DNA of 46,554 bases, taken from a virus. Shown piece after piece: positions 1 through 46,554 of this stretch. A program made the position numbers and the translations under genes. Numbering within the stretch: the first letter of the stretch is position 1; the number at the start of each line of letters is the position of its first letter. The notes beneath the pieces are model-generated. The model was not told the DNA's origin and did not search any database. It worked only from the letters and a program-made list of their open reading frames with translations. Location of the stretch: the IMG/VR virus record IMGVR_UViG_3300045988_054487. One strand, written 5' to 3'.

Positions 1-1082
1 AAAATTGGCTTGGCGGTGCATATTGGACGCCGCCTGAAGTAACTACACGTCGCACACATGGCTATGATTTCCCTATGTGGTTTATACGCCCCTACTTTGC
101 AAAAGAAACGAAAAAAAACGCTGCTAAAAGTAAGATGACACCTAAGAAAAAACCTAAAATGAATAAAGGTAAAAAGATATTACTTGTAGCTGGACATGGT
201 AAAGGTGCTTATTCAAACGATCCGGGAGCAGTAGCTAATGGATATAATGAGCGCGATTTCAACAGAAAAGAAGTTATACCTAGAGTTAAGAAATATCTTG
301 AGAGCGTAGGTAACACTGTCGTTTTATATGGCGGCAAGAAAATGAACCAAGATTTATATCAAGATACGTTGTACGGTCAAAGAGTAGGAAATTACAAAGA
401 CTATGGTTTGTATTGGGTTAAAAACAATGTTAAACCTGACGCAATCATAGAGTTTCATCTTGACGCGGCAGGACCTCAAGCCAGTGGAGGCCATGTAATA
501 GTGAGTGATAGATTTCCTGCCGATGATATAGACAAAGCGTTATCTAGCACATTAGACAAAACAGTTGGCAAAATAAGAGGTGTGACACCTAGAAATGATC
601 TGCTAAACGCAAATGTTACTGGATCGTTAAACCTAAACTATAGATTAATAGAATTAGGTTTTATAACATCTAAAAAAGACATGAATTACATCACAAAAAA
701 TATTGACGACTTCACTAAAAGAATTGCCGAAGCGATTAATGGTAGACAAATCAATGCGCCTAAAAGTAAGCCTTCTAGTAAAAAGATAACTTGGAATTGG
801 GGAGGTACTTTCTACCCTAATGCGCCTAAAGAAGGTATTAGAGTTAGAAGATCGCCCGGCTTAAATGGTGCTATTGTCGAAAGTGGTTCGTGGTTATACC
901 GAAAAACAGATTGGGTTAAATTTGATAGAGTTATCAAAAAGGATGGATATTGGTGGATTCGCTTTAAATATCAAGCGCCGGGATCAAGCAATAAACACTT
1001 CTACTGCGCTGTATGTAAAATTACTGATAAGCAACAAAAAATCAAAAATGAGAAATACTGGGGAACTATAGAGTGGAAATGA
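1..1082 (+). CDS. Endolysin, 3' portion of exon 2 (5'-partial in this window; continues from 46190..46554 across the circular junction): end of CHAP domain, Amidase_3 (N-acetylmuramoyl-L-alanine amidase, about 170-750) and SH3b/SH3_5 cell-wall-binding domain (about 786-1079)
   Basis: The reading frame is open from nt 3 and in phase with the frame at the window end. It has CHAP C-terminal motifs ([17 protein letters not shown]), the Amidase_3 signature ILLVAGHGKG..DPGA, and a C-terminal SH3b-like segment (WNWGGTFYP...GYWWIRFKY). The stop is at 1080-1082, followed by a hairpin terminator. Confidence 0.85.
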   Translation, partial: NWLGGAYWTPPEVTTRRTHGYDFPMWFIRPYFAKETKKNAAKSKMTPKKKPKMNKGKKILLVAGHGKGAYSNDPGAVANGYNERDFNRKEVIPRVKKYLESVGNTVVLYGGKKMNQDLYQDTLYGQRVGNYKDYGLYWVKNNVKPDAIIEFHLDAAGPQASGGHVIVSDRFPADDIDKALSSTLDKTVGKIRGVTPRNDLLNANVTGSLNLNYRLIELGFITSKKDMNYITKNIDDFTKRIAEAINGRQINAPKSKPSSKKITWNWGGTFYPNAPKEGIRVRRSPGLNGAIVESGSWLYRKTDWVKFDRVIKKDGYWWIRFKYQAPGSSNKHFYCAVCKITDKQQKIKNEKYWGTIEWK

Positions 1083-30567: not shown

Positions 30568-33500
30568 ATGGCAAGTGTAAAGGAGTTATATGCCAAGATT
30601 AGTGCCACTGCCGAAGGTTTTAATAAGACAATGGATAGTATATCTAGCAAGACAAGACAGACAGCTAAGAGTATATCCAGTCAATCCAGTGTCATGAGTA
30701 AAAGCCTAGAAGGTATCGGTAAAGCTGGGCGTAGCTTTGACAACATAGGAAACAAAATACAAAATGTTTCTAAAAATGTTGGTGGCGTTGGCGAAAAAAT
30801 GACTAACTCTATAACTAAGCCAGCAGGCATTGCAGCTGGTGCAGTTGGTGGACTTGTCGGTGCTTTAGGTTTCAAACGTCTTGTCGGAATGGATCAGGCA
30901 GAAGCTAAGTTAAAAGGTATCGGTCTTGCAGGTAAAGACGTTACAAAGATACAAAACCAAGTATCTAAGTCTATCGAAGGTAGTATGACAACTATGGCCG
31001 AAGGTACTGACTTAGCAGCAGGTGCCTTAGGATCAGGTGTTAAAGAAGGAAAAGAATTAGAAAAATACATAAAAGCAGCAGGTAACGCTGCAGTAGGTGC
31101 TAACGTACCTGTATCTGAAATGGGACAAATATTCAGTCGTGTTAAAGGTCAGGGTAAATTGGCCGGAACTGAACTACAAATGATGGAAGAACGTTTACCG
31201 GGCTTCACTTCTACTATGGCAAGAGAAATGGGCTTGTCTATGGAAGAATTTAGAAACAAAGTTTCTGAAGGTGAGGTTGGATATGACGAGTTCTTAAAAG
31301 GGGTTGAAGCTAGAGCTGGTAAATCGGCAGAGGCTCAATCTCAAACATTTATGGGTATGCTTACCAACACTAAAAACTATTTAGGAATGATTGGAGAAGC
31401 ATTTCTACAACCAGCATTTAAAGAGGCTAAAGTTGTATTAGCTGATATCGTTAATACATTAAATAGTGACTCATTAAGACAAAGTGCTGCAGAAGCAGGG
31501 AAAGTAGTAGCGCCAGCGTTCGCTTTTCTAGCTAAAGCAGTCACAGGAACGGTTAAGGCTTTCTTAAATCTACCCGGACCGGTATTAGGCGCAATTGGTG
31601 CTTTAGGTGGTATATTAATTGCAATCGGTCCAGTGCTAACAGGTTTTGCTAAGTTAGGTGGTATGATCGGAGGAATGTTCAAAACATTCGGATCATTACT
31701 ATCATTCGTGTCAGCATTAAACCCAGTCGGACTAATTATCATGGGTATTGTTGCGGCAGTCGCAGCATTAGGAACAGCTTTCTATATCGCCTATCAGAAA
31801 TCAGAAACATTTAGAAACTTCATCAACGGTATAGGCACTATGATAAGTGGTGCTATTGGTTGGGTTAAACAATTCGGCCAAGCAATTGGCGCGCTTTTCT
31901 CAGGAAACACTGGAGAAGGCGTCAACATATTAGAAAAACTAGGATTTAATCAAAGTCAAATATCAGCGATACAGGGTATGGTATCAAGTCTTAAAAGTAT
32001 ATTTACTGAATTAGGACGAGTGTTAGCGATAACATTTAATGAGATGAAAGGCGCTTGGAATGGAGTAGCTAGTGCATTCACTGGATCAATTCCATTTATT
32101 AAAATGGCGTTCTCTAACATGGTAGCAATACTAGGTCCGATATTTATGGCTTTAGTGAATGTTGTTAAGACAGTGTTCACAACTATAATTTCTGTCATTC
32201 GTGGCGCTTTCCAAATGATACAGGGCGTTATACAAATATTTAGCGGTCTTGTACAGGGCGACTGGTCGTTAGTATGGCAAGGCGTAGTAAATATATTCAA
32301 AGGTTTCTTTGGTATATTAGTTGCCTTAGTTAAACAGCTTGTCATGACGCTATTCTATATAGTTAAAGGATTGGCTACTAGTTTAGGTAATGCCTTACGC
32401 ATTGCTTTTGGCGTCGTCAAAAATATCATCGTCGGTATTTTCAACGGTATCAAGTGGGTAGTAGTTACAATATTTAAAGGCATGGTTAATGCTATCGTTG
32501 TCAGCGCACAAACATTGTGGTTGAGAATAACACAAATTTTTAATGCACTTAAATTTGCTATTACAGCTATATGGAATGGAATTAAATTTGTTTCTGTAGC
32601 AGTATGGAATAGTATTAAGTTTTTAGTAGTTGGTTTCGTTCGAACTATGAAAAATTTAATAATGATGATACTTGGCGGACTGAAAGCCGGTATATTGGCA
32701 ATTTGGAACGGAATCAAGTTTGTCACAATGTTTGTTTGGAATTTAATCAAGAATAGAGTTATAGCCAATGCTCGTATCATGAAGAATTTAGTCGTTGCCA
32801 TATTTAGAAGTTTAAAAGCTATCGTTTCTGCTATATGGAACGGACTTAAAAACTTTGTCATCTTAGTATGGAACACATTAAAAAATAGAGTAATTGCAAT
32901 TACTCGTATTTTGAAAAATATCGTAATTTCAGTAATACGAATAATGAAAAATATCGTTATTGCAACATTTAGAATAATGAAGAACATTGTTATTGCAGTG
33001 TGGAACGCATTGAAAAATAGAGTTATCGCAGTTGCTCGTATCATGAAAAACATTGTTATTACAGTTATTCGAACATTGAAGAATGTTGTTATTAGCATAT
33101 TTAGAGCATTGAAAAATGTAGCGATTGCTATTTGGAATGGAATTAAAAATAAAGTTATTTCTTTAGCTCGAACAATGAAGAACGTTGCTATATCAATAGT
33201 TCGCGCAATGAAAAACGCGATACTTGGAATTTGGAAAGCGCTCAAAAACGTAACAATTTCAATTTGGAACGCAATCAAAAATAAAGTAATCGGTTTAGCT
33301 CGCGGTTTGAAGAGCGCTGCACTTAGTGTTTTCCGTTCATTGAAGTCAGGTATTACTGGAATATGGAATGGTATAAAATCTGTTACATCTAAAGTATGGA
33401 ACGGAATTAAAAATGTAGCTATCGGCGCAGCTAAAGGAATGAAAAGTAAAGTCTTAGGTTTATTTGGTTCCATGAAAAACGGAATCAAAAAACAAATTGA

Positions 33501-35400
33501 TAACATCAAAGGGTTTATGGATAAAATGGTTGGTGGCGTTAAGAAAGGACTTAACGGACTAATCAAAGGTGTTAACTGGGTAGCCGGCAAACTAGGTATG
33601 GATAAGCTACCAGAGATAAAACTACATAGCGGTACTGTGGGTGGTGGACGTCTTGTAAGAAACGGAAAACTAAACACAGGCACAATGGCTACTGTAGGAG
33701 ATAAAGGTCGAGGAAATGGACCGGGCGGCTTTAGAAATGAAATGATACGCTATCCTAACGGAAGAATGGCACTAACACCTGATAAAGATACAACAACATT
33801 CTTGCCTAAAGGTTCAAGCGTATATAGCGGCGCACAAACACATTCATTATTGAGTAGCTTACCTAAGTTTTCTACTGGTACTAATCCATTAGGCAACGGA
33901 AACAAAAAGCCTAAGAAAAAGAAAAAAGGCGACAACATATTCGGCGACGCGTGGGACGCAACGAAAGCTGGTGCAGCTAAAGTCGTTGACGGTGGTAAAG
34001 CAGTTGTTAGCAAAACACTCGACGCTGCCGCAAAAGGTAAAGAGTGGTTAAGTGATAAAGTCGGAGATGTGCTTGACTGGATAGACAAACCAGAAAAACT
34101 ATTGGATAAAGTTCTTGAAGGCTTTGGAGTTAACTTAGATGGTTTCGGAATAACTAAAGCTGCTGAATTACCTTACAACATGATGAAAGGTATGTTCGGT
34201 AAACTTAAAAAAGGTGCTATAGAGAAATTTAAAGAATGGTTTGAAGAAAGTAGTAGTGGCGACGGTGGATACATTGACCTTTCTAAAGGTATAAACTTTG
34301 GTTTCGCTAGAACAGCTGCAGAAGCAGCAGCTCAGGGTTATCCGTTCGCAAGACCTCACTATGGTTTGGATATAAATTATAAATACGACAAAGTATATTC
34401 AACGCTTTCTGGTATGGCAACAGGTAGTTCAGGTTGGAACGGTGGTTTTGGTCAAAACATGTGGATAAGAGCCAAAAACGGAGTAGAAGCCATATACGGA
34501 CACCTTCACAAACTAGCCTTTCATGGTAAAAAACGTGTCAAACCGGGAACTTACTTAGGTATTTCCGGTGGGGATCCGGGACGTGACGGACAAAACGCCG
34601 GAAGTTCTACAGGTCCACACTTACACTATGAAATGCGCTGGAATGGAGTTCCTAAAGATCCAACAAGCTGGTTGAAGAAAAACAATGGTGGCGGCAAAGT
34701 CGGTGGCAGTGGATCAGGAAATGCACGTAAGGCAATCAAGAAAGCACAAGCGATTTTAGGCGGACGTTACAAGTCATCTTATATCACTGAACAAATGATG
34801 AGAGTCGCCAAACGTGAATCCAACTTCCAAGCTGACGCAGTCAATGACTGGGACGTCAATGCTAGAGCTGGAACACCTTCTAAAGGTATGTTCCAAATGA
34901 TTGAACCATCTTTTAAAGCATATGCTAAAAAAGGACATGGGAACATATTAAATCCAACTGACCAAGCTATATCAGCTATGCGCTACATTGTAGGTAAATG
35001 GGTTCCTATTATGGGAAGTTGGAAAAGTGCGTTTAAACGTGCAGGAGATTATGCTTATGCTAACGGTGGTATTGTTAATTCGCCAGAGTTAGCATGGATT
35101 GCCGAAGGTGGTTTCAGTGAGTCTGTTATAAGTCATGACCCTAGAAAACGTATGAGAAGTAAAAGCATACATGATAAAACAGGCAAAATGCTCGGTGTTG
35201 ATGATGATACGCAAATGTTACGAGAAATCATTAATATTCTTGAAGCTGGCAACCACTTACAATCTGTTAATAATAACGCTGTTAATAGATTGTTAGATAA
35301 AAACGTCGACATCTATATGGATAAGAAAAAACTAACACAAGCGGTCAACAATCAGTCAGCGGACTTATTCAATTCCGGTATGTATAATCAGGGAGGTTAA
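30568..35400 (+). CDS. Tape measure protein (1610 aa) with an 11-aa tandem repeat core, a C-terminal M23 peptidase domain (about 34336-34670) and a lytic transglycosylase SLT domain (about 34800-35000)
   Basis: N-terminal TMP-like helical region; about 29 copies of an ..IWN.IKN.V.. 11-mer. The M23 domain is YGHLH…GTYLGISG…GPHLHYE. The SLT domain is …AKRESNFQADAVN…GMFQM…. Confidence 0.85.
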   Translation: MASVKELYAKISATAEGFNKTMDSISSKTRQTAKSISSQSSVMSKSLEGIGKAGRSFDNIGNKIQNVSKNVGGVGEKMTNSITKPAGIAAGAVGGLVGALGFKRLVGMDQAEAKLKGIGLAGKDVTKIQNQVSKSIEGSMTTMAEGTDLAAGALGSGVKEGKELEKYIKAAGNAAVGANVPVSEMGQIFSRVKGQGKLAGTELQMMEERLPGFTSTMAREMGLSMEEFRNKVSEGEVGYDEFLKGVEARAGKSAEAQSQTFMGMLTNTKNYLGMIGEAFLQPAFKEAKVVLADIVNTLNSDSLRQSAAEAGKVVAPAFAFLAKAVTGTVKAFLNLPGPVLGAIGALGGILIAIGPVLTGFAKLGGMIGGMFKTFGSLLSFVSALNPVGLIIMGIVAAVAALGTAFYIAYQKSETFRNFINGIGTMISGAIGWVKQFGQAIGALFSGNTGEGVNILEKLGFNQSQISAIQGMVSSLKSIFTELGRVLAITFNEMKGAWNGVASAFTGSIPFIKMAFSNMVAILGPIFMALVNVVKTVFTTIISVIRGAFQMIQGVIQIFSGLVQGDWSLVWQGVVNIFKGFFGILVALVKQLVMTLFYIVKGLATSLGNALRIAFGVVKNIIVGIFNGIKWVVVTIFKGMVNAIVVSAQTLWLRITQIFNALKFAITAIWNGIKFVSVAVWNSIKFLVVGFVRTMKNLIMMILGGLKAGILAIWNGIKFVTMFVWNLIKNRVIANARIMKNLVVAIFRSLKAIVSAIWNGLKNFVILVWNTLKNRVIAITRILKNIVISVIRIMKNIVIATFRIMKNIVIAVWNALKNRVIAVARIMKNIVITVIRTLKNVVISIFRALKNVAIAIWNGIKNKVISLARTMKNVAISIVRAMKNAILGIWKALKNVTISIWNAIKNKVIGLARGLKSAALSVFRSLKSGITGIWNGIKSVTSKVWNGIKNVAIGAAKGMKSKVLGLFGSMKNGIKKQIDNIKGFMDKMVGGVKKGLNGLIKGVNWVAGKLGMDKLPEIKLHSGTVGGGRLVRNGKLNTGTMATVGDKGRGNGPGGFRNEMIRYPNGRMALTPDKDTTTFLPKGSSVYSGAQTHSLLSSLPKFSTGTNPLGNGNKKPKKKKKGDNIFGDAWDATKAGAAKVVDGGKAVVSKTLDAAAKGKEWLSDKVGDVLDWIDKPEKLLDKVLEGFGVNLDGFGITKAAELPYNMMKGMFGKLKKGAIEKFKEWFEESSSGDGGYIDLSKGINFGFARTAAEAAAQGYPFARPHYGLDINYKYDKVYSTLSGMATGSSGWNGGFGQNMWIRAKNGVEAIYGHLHKLAFHGKKRVKPGTYLGISGGDPGRDGQNAGSSTGPHLHYEMRWNGVPKDPTSWLKKNNGGGKVGGSGSGNARKAIKKAQAILGGRYKSSYITEQMMRVAKRESNFQADAVNDWDVNARAGTPSKGMFQMIEPSFKAYAKKGHGNILNPTDQAISAMRYIVGKWVPIMGSWKSAFKRAGDYAYANGGIVNSPELAWIAEGGFSESVISHDPRKRMRSKSIHDKTGKMLGVDDDTQMLREIINILEAGNHLQSVNNNAVNRLLDKNVDIYMDKKKLTQAVNNQSADLFNSGMYNQGG
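32480..33480. repeat. Tandem 33-nt (11-codon) repeats within the TMP gene
   Basis: Protein-level periodicity (A/S)IWNGIKN.VI. / R.MKN.VI. repeated about 29 times; it also creates a stop-free antisense frame. Confidence 0.8.
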
Positions 35401-44001: not shown

Positions 44002-44439
44002 ATGAACAAATACTTTACACCGAACGATAAACTAGCTACCCTCTCTCTATTTGGCTTAGGCACATACAATGGTGCTAGAGGCTTTTTTTGGGTACTAAGT
44101 CAAGAAGTGGTGGTACACGATAGCAAATTCTATGTTGCTTTAAATGAATTCATGCCTATATGGATATGGGGCGTTATATTAATGATATTTGGCCTATGTT
44201 TAATACTCTCTAGTGTTTTATATAGTAGAACAGATATAAGCAACAAATCATATTATTTAATGACAATTGGAGGGTTTGGTTGTGGGGTTATGCAATTTTT
44301 AATGGCTTCAGCCAGTTTATACAACGCTATAAACTGGTTGACGCCAATAAACTTTACTATCTTAGCAGCGTGGTGTGGTTTTGTAGGCTATATAGGAGTG
44401 TTAGGAGTAAATGACAAACAACGATTTTCTAAAGATTAG
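44002..44439 (+). CDS. Membrane protein with four predicted TM helices (lysis-cassette associated)
   Basis: RBS GGAGGGG; four hydrophobic segments of about 22 aa. Confidence 0.45.
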   Translation: MNKYFTPNDKLATLSLFGLGTYNGARGFFWVLSQEVVVHDSKFYVALNEFMPIWIWGVILMIFGLCLILSSVLYSRTDISNKSYYLMTIGGFGCGVMQFLMASASLYNAINWLTPINFTILAAWCGFVGYIGVLGVNDKQRFSKD

Positions 44440-44809
44440 AGATTGGGAGTCGGAAAAAAGAGAAATACAAAAGCAAATAAACGAAGTTGACACAAAACAC
44501 ACCGAAAATTACAACAACTTAATCAACAGAATAGATGTACAAACAGTTGTACAACGTAATACATACGAGTCGCAAAAGAAATCTGAAAAGCATTTAGAAA
44601 AAATAAGCGAAAACATTAGCAGTGTTGGTACTAGAGTTACAAAACTTGAATTTGCTAACGAAACAAATGAAAAAGAGATAAAGAAAATGCAAACAACATT
44701 GGAAGAAAAAAGCAAAGGCAACACTAATATTATTGTCGCTTGGATAGGTGTTGTTGGTGTATTACTACCTTCACTAGTCCCTGTGTTTTCTAACTTATTT
44801 GATAAATAA
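44411..44809 (+). CDS. XhlA-like (hemolysin XhlA family) lysis-associated protein
   Basis: N-terminal coiled-coil and a single C-terminal TM (IIVAWIGVVGVLLPSLVPVF), the XhlA architecture; sits upstream of the holin. Confidence 0.5.
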   Translation: MTNNDFLKIRDWESEKREIQKQINEVDTKHTENYNNLINRIDVQTVVQRNTYESQKKSEKHLEKISENISSVGTRVTKLEFANETNEKEIKKMQTTLEEKSKGNTNIIVAWIGVVGVLLPSLVPVFSNLFDK

Positions 44810-44827
44810 AATGGAGGTGTTGAGTTT

Positions 44828-45097
44828 ATGAAACCTGATGTAGGTACAATAACTAGGGTTGTATTATTCATTTTAGCTTGGGTTAACCAAATACTAGCTA
44901 ATTATAATTTATCCCCTATAGAAGCAAGCGAAGAAAATATCAGTGACATTATCACTGGTGCAATTTCTGTTTGGGTATTATGGAAAAACAACAACTTTAC
45001 ACATGCTGCAAAAGAAGGACAACAAAAAATAAACGAGGTCAAATCCGGAAATAACAAACATACAGGTTCGCCCGTTATTGATGAGGAGGATTTATAA
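44828..45097 (+). CDS. Holin (SPP1-family type)
   Basis: Two TM segments (ITRVVLFILAWVNQILA; IITGAISVWVLW) and a charged C-terminus; immediately upstream of the endolysin. Confidence 0.65.
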   Translation: MKPDVGTITRVVLFILAWVNQILANYNLSPIEASEENISDIITGAISVWVLWKNNNFTHAAKEGQQKINEVKSGNNKHTGSPVIDEEDL

Positions 45098-45184
45098 TGA
45101 CTTCAATAAGAACATATAAACAAGCGTCGAAGTATCTAAAGTATATGGAGGGCAAAGCATGGAATCCAGATAGAGCATATGGAT
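45097..45184 (+). CDS. Endolysin exon 1 (29 codons + 1 nt), the N-terminus of the CHAP domain
   Basis: RBS GAGGAGGA 6 nt upstream; the ATG overlaps the holin stop (TAATG). It encodes MTSIRTYKQASKYLKYMEGKAWNPDRAYG, which is collinear with the phi11-type lysin N-terminus (…WLKTSEGKQFNVDLWYGF|QCFD…). Confidence 0.7.
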
Positions 45185-46189
45185 TAATTGATAGTCCATA
45201 TAAAACCTATTGAATTGCTGGGAACCCCTAACGTAAAGTCGAGGGCAATCAGCAGCGAAGCCTTTGTGGTAACAGCGAAGGAACGTTCAACGACTAAGTG
45301 CATACAATCGTATGACAGCGGTAGGTATTCTTGATACATATAAAAAACATGATATAATCAAGACAACAATTACGGAAAGGTGTTTTGATTATGGTTAGTA
45401 GTGTTGAAATCGGAAAAAGATATAACAACGTAAAAATTTTAGAGTATTCTCATAAAAATAAACACAACAAGAAAAAGTACAAATGTAAATGTATGTTATG
45501 TGGCAAAGTTTTTATTACGTTAGGCACTACAGTTAAAACAGGGAGGTTAAAAAGTTGTGGTTGCTTATCTAATAAAAAAGCTAAAGAAAGAATGGAAAAA
45601 CATGGAATGCATGGCACTCAAATATATAATCGTTGGAAGGGTATGAAATCAAGATGCAGGAATAAATCTTACCACGCCTATCATAGATACAATGGTAAAG
45701 GTATAACTGTTTGCGAACGGTGGCAAAATGATTTTATGAACTTTTATAACGATATGAACGATACATTCTTTGAAGGGGCTGAATTAGATAGAATAGACAA
45801 CAGCAAAGGTTATTATCCTGAAAATTGTAGATGGGTTACACATAAACAAAATTGTAACAACAGAGATAAATATAAAAATAACACTGGTTACACAGGAGTG
45901 CATTTCGGAAAGAAAAACAAAACTTATCAGGTTAATATGTGTCACAAAAGAAAAAGTATCTATATTGGAAGTTACAAAAATATAAAAGATGCAGTAAACG
46001 CAAGAAAATCATTTATATTGAAATTCAACAAAGATAATGGGACAAATTATAAATATGAAGAGTATCAAGAATAATGATATAGTCTAGTCTTATATGAAAG
46101 TATAAGGTTTCTAAAACAGAAACTATTTAGCGTTACACAAAATTATAGAGAAATCTATAATCAGAGAGGCGTTAAATATAATACAAACG
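45185..46189 (+). mobile_element. Group I self-splicing intron (about 1005 nt) interrupting the endolysin CHAP domain, carrying an HNH homing endonuclease ORF
   Basis: P1: the exon-1 end AUGGAU pairs with the intron GUCCAU (45194-45199), with a U-G wobble at the 5' splice site. P10: the exon-2 start AUCAAU (46190-46195) pairs with AUUGAU (45187-45192), directly adjacent to the P1 strand, forming a contiguous internal guide sequence. The last intron nucleotide is G (46189). A structured GC-rich core runs from 45210 to 45330. The spliced junction reads [16 protein letters not shown]. Confidence 0.7.
45385..46074 (+). CDS. Intron-encoded HNH-family homing endonuclease with an N-terminal Cys-cluster zinc finger
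   Basis: CKCMLCG…SCGC zinc finger. An AP2-like/HNH-associated motif (IYNRWKGMKSRCRNKSYHAYHRYNGKGITVCERW) and ELDRIDNSKGYYPENCRWVTHKQNCNN; it lies entirely inside the intron. Confidence 0.6.
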   Translation: MIMVSSVEIGKRYNNVKILEYSHKNKHNKKKYKCKCMLCGKVFITLGTTVKTGRLKSCGCLSNKKAKERMEKHGMHGTQIYNRWKGMKSRCRNKSYHAYHRYNGKGITVCERWQNDFMNFYNDMNDTFFEGAELDRIDNSKGYYPENCRWVTHKQNCNNRDKYKNNTGYTGVHFGKKNKTYQVNMCHKRKSIYIGSYKNIKDAVNARKSFILKFNKDNGTNYKYEEYQE

Positions 46190-46554
46190 ATCAATGTTTT
46201 GATACAGCAAACCAATATTGGATGTACTTATTCGGACATATGTTAAAAGGCATAGGCGCTGCAGATATTCCTACATGGAATAACTTCAAAGGAGAAGCAA
46301 AAGTCTATGAAAACACATTAGACTTTCTACCTAAACGTGGAGATTTAGTTATATTCAACAGAAATTATGGTGGCGGTTACGGACACGTTGGTATTGTCAT
46401 AAAAGCAACATTAGATTACATAGTGATCATAGAGCAAAATTGGCTTGGCGGTGCATATTGGACGCCGCCTGAAGTAACTACACGTCGCACACATGGCTAT
46501 GATTTCCCTATGTGGTTTATACGCCCCTACTTTGCAAAAGAAACGAAAAAAAAC
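46190..46554 (+). CDS. Endolysin exon 2, 5' part (3'-partial in the window; continues at 120..1082 via the circular junction), the CHAP catalytic core
   Basis: Encodes (Y)[10 protein letters not shown]…GDLVIF…YGHVGIVI…, with the catalytic Cys in QCFD and the His in GHVG; same frame as 1..1082. Confidence 0.7.
46436..46554. repeat. 119-nt exact duplicate of window positions 1-119 (terminal redundancy of a circularly permuted or circular assembly)
   Basis: Character-for-character identity between 1-119 and 46436-46554. Confidence 0.9.

Follow-up and report, generated by a model that had tools for sequence, protein, structure and literature searches.

How a staphylococcal phage obtains a complete endolysin from a gene whose reading frame breaks off after 29 codons and resumes about 1 kb downstream is the question raised by the window analysed here, a viral DNA of 46,554 nucleotides (IMG/VR record IMGVR_UViG_3300045988_054487). 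This window represents the circular genome of a siphovirus of Staphylococcus epidermidis, of the Lacachita/Sazerac type; its bases 1-119 are an exact repeat of 46436-46554, a 119-nt terminal overlap that identifies it as a circular assembly. The endolysin gene lies directly behind the holin gene (a Holin_SPP1 ORF, 44828-45097), with its ATG at 45097 overlapping the holin stop codon (TAATG) and a GAGGAGG motif located 8 nt 5' of this start. Scans of the window for tRNAs and tandem repeats returned nothing that bears on the split lysin. The gene is very probably interrupted by a mobile group I intron of 1,005 nt (45185..46189, on the + strand like all features described below), which begins with UAAUUG, ends in G and, judging from its sequence, would be self-splicing. 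Five independent lines support this reading, namely the covariance score, an intron-less allele, the paired structure, homologues that lack an ORF and the conservation of the ribozyme.

The boundaries of the element are apparent from comparison with the intron-less lysin gene of CUB-EPI_14 (ON325435.2), a phage 97% identical to the window; this gene aligns without a gap across the junction of 45184 with 46190 (430/453 nt identical). Exon 1 (45097..45184), 88 nt long, covers the codons of Met1-Gly29 and one base of codon 30; it agrees at every position with the opening 88 nt of the CUB-EPI_14 lysin (100% identity). After nt 88 the intron splits codon 30 behind its first base, at a point four bases ahead of the triplet for the catalytic CHAP cysteine. 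Exon 2 opens with the AU that finishes Tyr30, followed by Gln and Cys32, the CHAP nucleophile. Its first part (46190..46554) is colinear with the CUB-EPI_14 lysin and runs off the end of the window, and the rest (120..1082) carries the Amidase_3 and SH3b_P2 domains as well as the stop codon. The predicted junction of the joined exons reads ...GCAUAUGGAU followed directly by AUCAAUGUUUU..., and the spliced coding sequence of 1,416 nt, equal in length to that of CUB-EPI_14, encodes 471 aa, 463 of which are identical in the CUB-EPI_14 protein. A first-pass annotation of the letters alone had proposed the 88-nt, 29-aa first exon, the return of homology at 46190 and the restored frame ...DRAYG-Y-QCFD..., and the intron-less allele bears out all three.

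The spliced lysin has the CHAP-amidase-SH3b architecture of staphylococcal endolysins, with an N-terminal CHAP domain containing the catalytic cysteine (Pfam, residues 27-113), a central Amidase_3 domain (171-358) and a C-terminal SH3b_P2 domain (373-471). Over its first 151 aa it shares 78% identity with the lysins of the S. aureus phages 71, SA97 and phiETA3. The middle domain of the phi11 lysin is an Amidase_2 domain. Since that of the present protein belongs to Amidase_3, the enzyme is not strictly phi11-type, as the first-pass annotation had called it, and the label fits its CHAP domain only.

The identity of the intervening DNA as a group I intron was examined with covariance models. The Rfam family RF00028 (Intron_gpI) matches the 5' half of the element at 45175-45430 with 62.9 bits (E 1e-13), above the curated gathering score of 50 bits, and is the sole Rfam match in the window. 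This is the check that the first-pass annotation had proposed for its group I assignment, which it sustains along with the location of a P3-P8 core. The placement of the 3' half at 45340-45430 in this match was rejected as it puts P8 and J8/7 inside an endonuclease ORF with mismatched pairs and leaves out P7' and P9; the real elements are found at 46062-46106. A separate search of the downstream region placed 46072-46104 on model positions 219-251 (17.5 bits, E 0.027), and the ORF-less homologue of phage SEP9 scores 91.5 bits over model positions 1-253. At the gathering threshold the loci of Sazerac, SAPYZU_15 and Bacillus phage Nigalana gave no intron report, despite the near-identity in sequence of the Sazerac locus to the 60.9-bit match of Lacachita; the SAPYZU_15 intron reached 27.4 bits in a local E-value search. 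A second group I intron was not found in the window at the same threshold, a search that split introns could escape.

The structure begins with a P1 hairpin (45179-45186 / 45192-45199), seen in the sequence as well as in the Rfam alignment, in which the exon-1 end AUGGAU (45179-45184) pairs with GUCCAU (45194-45199), placing a U45184-G45194 wobble at the 5' splice site; the helix is extended by the pairs U45185-A45193 and A45186-U45192. The internal guide sequence (45187-45199) also contains AUUGAU (45187..45192), which forms P10 by six perfect pairs with the exon-2 start AUCAAU (46190-46195). P1 is 100% paired in all seven sequences compared, and so are the six pairs of P10; relative to SEP9 and 6ec each helix carries a compensatory double change from A-U to G-C. 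The terminal guanosine (omega G) is G46189, the only position that fits both the frame and the intron-less allele. Both guide pairings, including the U-G at the splice site, and the final G had been read from the sequence in the first-pass annotation, and they stand.

The 5' catalytic core block (45206..45325), as aligned by Rfam, contains the 5' strand of P3 (45206-11, pairing with 45320-25), P4 (45216-21 / 45249-54), P5 (45226-29 / 45242-45, plus 45232-33 / 45240-41), P6 (45255-56 / 45285-86), P6a (45261-66 / 45276-81), J6/7 (45287-91) and the P7 5' strand GACUA (45292-96). In introns of the IA, or phage, type, the 5' strand of P7 and the 3' strand of P3 are usually separated by the extra helices P7.1 and P7.2. 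One hairpin occupies this position here (P7.1, 45301-05 / 45310-14); a second P7.x hairpin and a P2 helix were sought in the intron structure and neither was found. P8 (45327-45337 / 46062-46072) consists of 11 bp of perfect complementarity, and the short P8 of SEP9 aligns to the same place in the Rfam model. It is followed by J8/7 (AAUGAUA, 46073-79) and the P7 3' strand (UAGUC, 46080-84), both of which fit the Rfam consensus and are homologous to the corresponding segments of SEP9. The peripheral 3' domain (46089..46177) comprises P9 (46089-94 / 46101-06) and three helices whose names are our own labels, P9.1 (46107-12 / 46118-23), P9.2 (46125-34 / 46168-77) and P9.2a (46143-49 / 46154-60). 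A minimum-free-energy fold of an ORF-less construct recovered P1 (8/8 pairs), P4, P6, P7 (5/5), P8 (11/11), P9, P9.1, P9.2 and P9.2a. Overall, the element combines the covariance score with a P1 bearing the U-G wobble, a P3-P8 core, a terminal G with P10 and an excision that restores the gene, as befits a group I intron.

Taken over the seven sequences, 99.3% of the pairs hold in the 78-pair structure from P1 to P10, which includes the P3/P7 pseudoknot, against 36-44% in a control in which the partners were slid. Compensatory changes affect 18/78 pairs and are distributed over P1, P10, P3 (two pairs), P6a (four), P7.1 (three) and the peripheral helices P9, P9.1, P9.2 and P9.2a (seven together, relative to SEP9/6ec). 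As the comparison sets the clade of the window against that of SEP9/6ec, essentially one deep split, these 18 pairs amount to few independent events. P4, P5, P7 and J8/7 do not vary among the sequences compared, so that P4, P5 and P7 are uninformative on covariation either way, and P8 was judged per sequence and excluded from the count because the difference in length between the clades was too great for MAFFT. Among four close relatives the ribozyme varies at 6/269 nt, the endonuclease ORF at 62/684 and the exons at 45/453, that is about 2% of sites in the ribozyme versus 9-10% in the other two. The 154-nt stretch 45185-45338, which includes the 5' core block, has two variable sites with pairing kept, and every substitution inside a helix among the close relatives preserves its pair.

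The loop of P8 accommodates a predicted homing-endonuclease gene (45391..46074) of 227 aa; its final codons share sequence with the P8 3' strand, and its stop codon (TAA, 46072-74) extends into J8/7. This location divides the catalytic core into two blocks, with the true 3' core (P8 3' strand, J8/7, P7', P9-P9.2 and the terminal G) following the ORF. The first-pass annotation had read the approximately 1-kb insert correctly as an intron, yet missed the endonuclease gene in P8 and the resulting two-block core. The protein is predicted to contain a Cys4 zinc ribbon, a PacI-like nuclease domain and a C-terminal AP2 DNA-binding domain, the last of these being a hallmark of HNH-AP2 homing endonucleases. 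Searches against Pfam HNH and NCBIfam gave no match, and comparison with solved structures detected no sequence match. The motif D133-R134-I135-D136 includes an invariant arginine at what we take to be the position of the catalytic histidine in HNH_3 proteins. Given these results and the arginine at the expected histidine position, nuclease activity stands as a domain prediction. By cleaving lysin alleles that lack the intron, for example that of CUB-EPI_14, the predicted enzyme presumably promotes the spread of the intron through homing; the presence or absence of the intron is polymorphic within this 97%-identical genus.

GGAAAGGTG lies upstream of the endonuclease gene, which has its own ribosome-binding site. 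A putative sigma-70-like promoter (45331..45358, TTGATA-16 nt-TATAAT with a TG extended -10) matches the consensus at 11/12 positions plus the TG and is the best promoter-like site in 44300-46554, with its -35 element inside the P8 5' strand. The hexamers are unchanged in the relatives, where differences are confined to the spacer. The region shows no enrichment of promoter-like sites (5 observed versus 9.8 expected), and the consensus match at 45331-45358 is so placed that it could drive the endonuclease gene.

The following course of events is proposed. The RNA would fold into a group I core of P1 and P3-P8 with the P3/P7 pseudoknot, the extra P7.1 and P9-P9.2, lacking P2. The guide at 45187-45199 would pair first with the end of exon 1, forming P1 with the U45184-G45194 wobble, and a free guanosine held in P7 would attack after U45184. 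Six adjacent guide bases would then hold the start of exon 2 as P10 while the terminal G46189 takes up the G site; ligation of the exons would give an mRNA for the 471-aa CHAP/Amidase_3/SH3b lysin. The endonuclease in the P8 loop may be expressed from its own promoter-like site and ribosome-binding site and would direct homing of the intron into empty lysin alleles.

Whether the lysin needs this splicing at all can be judged from the reading frames of the unspliced RNA. The frame of exon 1 runs into the stop codon TGA at 45211-45213, leaving a 38-aa ORF, and in the frame of exon 2 a TGA at 46075 is followed by a first start codon at 46222 (Met41), downstream of Cys32. The start at 46075 that the first-pass annotation had considered as an alternative is in fact an ATG at 46074-46076, which is out of frame and reads M-I-stop. 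With no in-frame start upstream of the Cys32 codon the unspliced RNA cannot encode the catalytic cysteine, and it is a sound inference from the sequence that a lysin containing this residue would depend on splicing. The phage could nevertheless live with a dead relic of an intron that no longer splices, making a truncated lysin from ATG 46222 or 46240 that acts via Amidase_3 and SH3b alone. Both of these domains are intact downstream, and the GenBank records of Lacachita, Sazerac and S-CoN_Ph27 do place the lysin start at an internal Met and list the 38-aa exon-1 ORF as a 'hypothetical protein'. This explanation is nonetheless very improbable, given that the two internal ATGs are situated 3' of Cys32 and are not preceded by a Shine-Dalgarno sequence, that exon 1 is still intact, in frame and a full match to the intron-less allele, that P1 and P10 covary with the exons, and that the ribozyme segments are 4-5 times better conserved than the flanking coding sequence with pairs maintained in the helices. 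The intron-bearing relatives were isolated as infective phages (PMC10286716, PMC13064016).

Splicing might also occur at sites other than 45184 and 46190, through cryptic or alternative 3' sites, and yield a protein altered near residue 30. The intron starts with U45185, which thus provides a second U after the splice-site U, and the residue at the junction is Phe (UUU) in the intron-less allele versus the Tyr (UAU) predicted here. However, only this pair of sites unites the P1 U-G wobble, the terminal G, six P10 pairs and the restored frame; a one-base shift of the 5' site destroys the frame, and the introns of SEP9/6ec, in which P1 and P10 are compensated, have their splice sites at the same positions and likewise encode Tyr (UAC), making this even less probable than a relic. 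The least credible proposal, to which hardly any weight can be given, is that the insert is not a group I intron but a free-standing endonuclease cassette, an insertion sequence, a group II intron or a false join of two gene fragments made during assembly. The endonuclease ORF, with a promoter-like site of its own, does take up most of the 1 kb, and the window was obtained by assembly and has an overlap of 119 nt. Against this stand the above-threshold Rfam score with the conserved J8/7-P7'-P9 block, the identical arrangement in four independently sequenced phages, and boundaries that are explained to the exact base without inverted or direct terminal repeats. The preferred reading therefore remains a group I intron that joins its exons at 45184 and 46190.

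The arrangement as such is already well known in staphylococcal phages, where intron-split lysins have been described for about two decades, and as ordinary, textbook biology of these phages it brings no conceptual gain. Its practical consequence concerns annotation. In the four GenBank records of relatives examined the exons were left unjoined in every case, with the lysin beginning at an internal Met or fragmented, and the lysins annotated in these records lack residues 1 to 40-45, among them the cysteine on which CHAP catalysis depends. Lysins cloned from them as antibacterial enzymes would be crippled unless the exons were joined at 45184 and 46190.

Lacachita (OP142323), Sazerac (ON550478), Southeast (OQ623150) and S-CoN_Ph27 (OR354850) carry the same intron at the same insertion site with the same endonuclease ORF. 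Together with CUB-EPI_14, the only one without the intron, these genus members share 96-97.5% identity over 25 kb. The ribozyme core of the four is 97-98% identical to that of the window, from which their introns differ by few substitutions, all of them preserving pairing, and the Sazerac endonuclease shares 94% aa identity with its counterpart. The Lacachita record and paper name a 'group I catalytic intron' ncRNA (PMC10286716), a feature that spans the Rfam 5' block only.

Phages of the genus Sextaecvirus (SEP9, 6ec, BE22, CF9 and the S-CoN_Ph series) contain an ORF-less intron at the identical insertion point in the endolysin, as in the window one base into the codon before the Gln-Cys of the CHAP motif, although their genomes of 86-104 kb are those of unrelated phages. 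These introns are about 72% identical across the entire ribozyme, share its helices and its way of setting the splice sites by P1 and P10, and differ in the absence of the endonuclease gene and the reduction of P8 to a short hairpin; the P8 loops of 6ec and CF9 hold a consensus promoter without the gene. The window (intron plus endonuclease), Sextaecvirus (intron without endonuclease) and CUB-EPI_14 (empty site) form a natural series usable for studying intron homing and endonuclease loss.

In Silviavirus, the split CHAP gene of SAPYZU_15 (MW864252) contains a group I intron beside the same Gly-X-Gln-Cys motif, with a related AP2-type endonuclease gene that is also located in P8 (the homologous KSAP11 ORF is 53% identical) and a P7-P7.1 segment nearly identical to that of SEP9. 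It differs in a splice site read as 2 nt further downstream, between WYGA and QCYD, in its P1 and in a large insertion in the P5 region. Related but distinct introns with differing endonuclease content are thus found at the CHAP Gln-Cys site, or 2 nt off, in three phage lineages unrelated to each other, Lacachita-type siphoviruses, Sextaecvirus and Silviavirus. Speculatively, and with low confidence, the few bases before the Gln-Cys codons of staphylococcal CHAP lysins may have received group I introns repeatedly; the zinc-ribbon/AP2 endonuclease could then move between ribozyme backbones, and a ribozyme placed ahead of the nucleophile codon could tie the timing of lysis to RNA folding.

The lysK gene of phage K and other Kayvirus members is likewise split by a group I intron, which encodes I-KsaI, an endonuclease annotated as HNH. 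Intron-split lysins also occur in the staphylococcal phages 85, G1 and X2, and within this group the comparison of insertion sites covers lysK only. A site shared with the phage K intron was considered and dismissed, as LysK.1 has 209 aa, which puts that intron between the CHAP and amidase domains and away from residue 30 (PMC5618024). Group I introns in lysin genes have been reported for 20 of 205 staphylococcal phages, about 10% (PMC6507118; PMC5618024; PMC9430571), and mass spectrometry of purified fRuSau02 particles detected LysK peptides of the N-terminal as well as the C-terminal part (PMC5618024).

Core stretches of the window intron are 80-96% identical to introns in the DNA polymerase and terminase genes of Bacillus, Vibrio and other phages. 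The introns of T4 td (I-TevI), of the SPO1 DNA polymerase gene (I-HmuI) and of Twort are of the IA type and interrupt essential genes, with the endonuclease ORF looped out from a peripheral helix. Such classical phage group I introns provide the endonuclease with an internal promoter, and their 5' splice site is soon followed by a stop codon in frame. They differ from the intron described here in the host genes they occupy, and the endonuclease of the window is set apart by its zinc-ribbon/AP2 type.

The lysin gene is interrupted by a 1,005-nt stretch (45185-46189) which the first-pass annotation took to be a group I intron with splice sites set by a guide sequence; the analysis confirms the observation and supports this interpretation. 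Exon 1 lies at 45097-45184, where it had been placed, and its end (AUGGAU, 45179-45184) pairs with GUCCAU (45194-45199) to form P1, in which U45184-G45194 is the wobble pair at the splice site. The proposed P10 joins AUUGAU (45187-45192) to its full complement AUCAAU (46190-46195), and the intron ends as described in a G (46189) directly before exon 2. The claim that joining 45184 to 46190 restores the frame is upheld in its strongest test, which rests on a comparator not available to that annotation, the sister phage CUB-EPI_14 (ON325435.2) with its uninterrupted lysin gene. The joined exons are colinear with this gene without gaps (88/88 nt identical in exon 1 and 430/453 nt overall), and when exon 2 is followed over the circular junction to window position 1082 the spliced CDS and the CUB-EPI_14 gene have exactly the same length, 1,416 nt, with 463 of 471 residues identical between the two products. 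The spliced lysin comprises CHAP, Amidase_3 and SH3b_P2 domains, and its junction codon is UAU (Tyr) compared with UUU (Phe) in the empty CUB-EPI_14 allele.

Comparison of the terminal sequences showed that window positions 1-119 are an exact copy of 46436-46554, from which it follows that the window closes into a circle of about 46.4 kb; its artificial ends are crossed by the lysin gene. It is 96-97.5% identical over 25 kb to the S. epidermidis siphoviruses Lacachita, Sazerac, CUB-EPI_14, Southeast and S-CoN_Ph27. Elsewhere, the 1,610-aa ORF at 30568-35400, which judged from its length and the annotation in relatives is the tape-measure gene, contains, at 32869-33158, about 2.2 tandem copies of a 132-nt unit with sub-periods of 33 and 66 nt.

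A group I core, the recovery of which had been proposed as a check, was found by the Rfam Intron_gpI covariance model at 45175-45430 (62.9 bits, E 1e-13; gathering score 50), the only match in an Rfam scan of the window. The alignment is convincing in its 5' two-thirds, which cover P1, P3, P4-P6, J6/7, the P7 5' strand and P3'. Its 3' third was rejected, as P8 and J8/7 are forced into coding sequence and mismatched. By inspection, the true 3' elements are located beyond a 684-nt ORF, with an 11-bp P8 (45327-45337/46062-46072), J8/7 (AAUGAUA) and P7' (UAGUC) at 46073-46084, and a P9 hairpin after P7'. The segment 46072-46104 alone matches model positions 219-251 (J8/7-P7'-P9; 17.5 bits, E 0.027), and thus the catalytic core is complete and divided by a gene in the P8 loop. 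An unconstrained minimum-free-energy fold of the ORF-less RNA recovered P1, P4, P6, P7, P8, P9, P9.1, P9.2 and P9.2a.

BLAST with the ORF-deleted intron identified ORF-less introns of 275-317 nt, about 72% identical, in some thirty SEP9/6ec-type S. epidermidis phages of 86-104 kb (Sextaecvirus), and all six copies extracted occupy the identical site in the lysin, ...WYG(U|AC)-QCFD. The SEP9 intron scores 91.5 bits against the whole Rfam model, and its P8, J8/7, P7' and P9 align to the relocated positions in the window. A hand-built structure of 78 pairs, including the P3/P7 pseudoknot and P10, was scored on three window-clade introns (ORF removed) and four Sextaecvirus introns; standard pairs occur in 99.3% of cells, and sliding the 3' partners by 1-3 columns lowers this to 36-44%. 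Both sides change in 18 pairs (P1 1, P10 1, P3 2, P6a 4, P7.1 3, P9 1, P9.1 3, P9.2 2, P9.2a 1), which represent few independent events since the sequences form two clades, and P4, P5 and P7 are invariant across the seven introns and hence uninformative. The P1 and P10 changes are each a compensatory A-U to G-C that includes one exon base, so the guide sequence tracks its exons, in line with the role assigned to it in the first-pass annotation. Among four close relatives, variable positions number 6/269 in the ribozyme segments, 62/684 in the ORF and 45/453 in the exons, and every in-helix substitution retains the pair. A separate Rfam match, RF02897 'Staphylococcus sRNA 808' (207.6 bits), falls within the SEP9 endolysin coding region (locus L006, 3702-3956); the family may have been built from lysin-like coding sequence, and the window's lysin gave no match to it at the gathering threshold.

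The P8-loop ORF (45391-46074) encodes a 227-aa protein that matches PHROG 374 'HNH endonuclease' (3e-70), with no match in Pfam, NCBIfam or PDB sequences. Its database homologues are mostly unnamed or 'AP2 domain-containing', and tblastn located relatives in 899 phage records. In a 50-sequence alignment C34, C37, C56, C58, D133-R134-I135, N145 and N157 are invariant or nearly so, and the protein is read as a putative zinc-ribbon/nuclease/AP2 homing endonuclease. The ORF is preceded by GGAAAGGTG and by a candidate sigma-70-like promoter at 45331-45358 (TTGATA-16-TATAAT with TG, 11/12 matches, the best of the region), whose -35 hexamer falls within the P8 5' strand. The 3' end of the ORF shares its last codons with the P8 3' strand, and its stop codon extends to J8/7.

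In the lysis cassette the lysin directly follows a Holin_SPP1 gene (44828-45097); its ATG (45097) is preceded by GAGGAGG and overlaps the holin stop codon, and owing to this overlap the two genes are presumably co-transcribed. The unspliced exon-1 frame closes after 38 codons at UGA 45211-45213, where a ribosome entering exon 1 of unspliced RNA would halt. The exon-2 frame is blocked by UGA at 46075 and its first start is Met41 (46222), beyond the nucleophile Cys32 and with no Shine-Dalgarno sequence found before it. Together, the early stop and the late start suggest that a complete CHAP domain would be made only from spliced RNA. Splicing would take the usual course of two transesterifications, with P1 and then P10 as guides.

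In public records, annotation of the sister-phage lysins begins at Met41 or Met46 or is fragmented. The Lacachita (locus L002, 2741-4018) and Sazerac (L010, 2723-4018) endolysins start at an internal Met, that of S-CoN_Ph27 (L003, 2724-4018) is in four fragments, and exon 1 appears as a separate 38-aa 'hypothetical protein'. Consequently the deposited lysins lack the catalytic CHAP cysteine. Corrected lysin annotation is one practical value of the analysis, which adds to the first-pass annotation the P8-borne endonuclease gene, the new position of the 3' core, and comparators lacking the ORF or the whole intron; the other is a convenient natural series for homing studies.

Intron-split staphylococcal phage lysins are a recognised class, and the present finding is of this already known kind. 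Group I introns were reported in the lysin genes of 20 of 205 staphylococcal phages, e.g. 85 and G1 (Oliveira et al., PMC6507118), and split lysins are also cited for vB_SauS_Mh15 and X2 (PMC9430571). The Kayvirus lysK intron encodes I-KsaI, and both LysK halves gave peptides in fRuSau02 (PMC5618024); it lies after residue 209 and thus interrupts the gene elsewhere. In GenBank, the phages Lacachita, Sazerac, Southeast and S-CoN_Ph27 carry the same intron as the window at 97-98% identity, and 'a group I catalytic intron' is listed for Lacachita both in its record and in its paper. No lysin-splitting statement, published splice junction or joined CDS was found for this intron in the papers and GenBank records consulted. 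The intron occurs in four genus members and is missing from one that is 97% identical; this polymorphism, like the copies without the ORF in a second phage genus, would fit a mobile element whose endonuclease spreads it.

Further group I introns were encountered in other genes. In a tail-tip hydrolase region of the S. aureus phage DW2 (L016, 1501-1734), flagged 'may contain intron' by the depositors, a sequence matches the 3' four-fifths of the ORF-less intron at about 75% identity, which places the same ribozyme lineage in a virion-associated hydrolase gene as well. The S. warneri phage IME1367_01 (L007, 2463-2729) carries a 97.9-bit intron that interrupts the amidase gene at a different place, with a 193-aa 'hypothetical' ORF immediately upstream of the ribozyme and not inside it. 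The large terminase of the Vibrio phage vB_VpaM_R16F (L009, 2418-4446), annotated as five fragments, is unusually intron-dense, with four separate Rfam matches (72-94 bits) between the fragments.

Among the ORF-less introns, P8 is only a short hairpin in SEP9 and BE22, whereas in 6ec (L011, about 553-610) and CF9 (L014) the loop contains a consensus promoter, perfect in sequence (TTGACA, 17 nt, TATAAT, with TG), without an endonuclease gene, and resembles what a lost homing-endonuclease cassette would leave behind. A second CHAP-domain gene, that of the Silviavirus phage SAPYZU_15 (L004, 1532-2600), is split beside the same Gly-X-Gln-Cys motif; the splice site, as read here, is 2 nt further downstream (WYGA|QCYD). 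Its intron is related (Rfam 27.4 bits), likewise holds an AP2-type endonuclease ORF in P8, and has a P7-P7.1 segment almost identical to that of SEP9.
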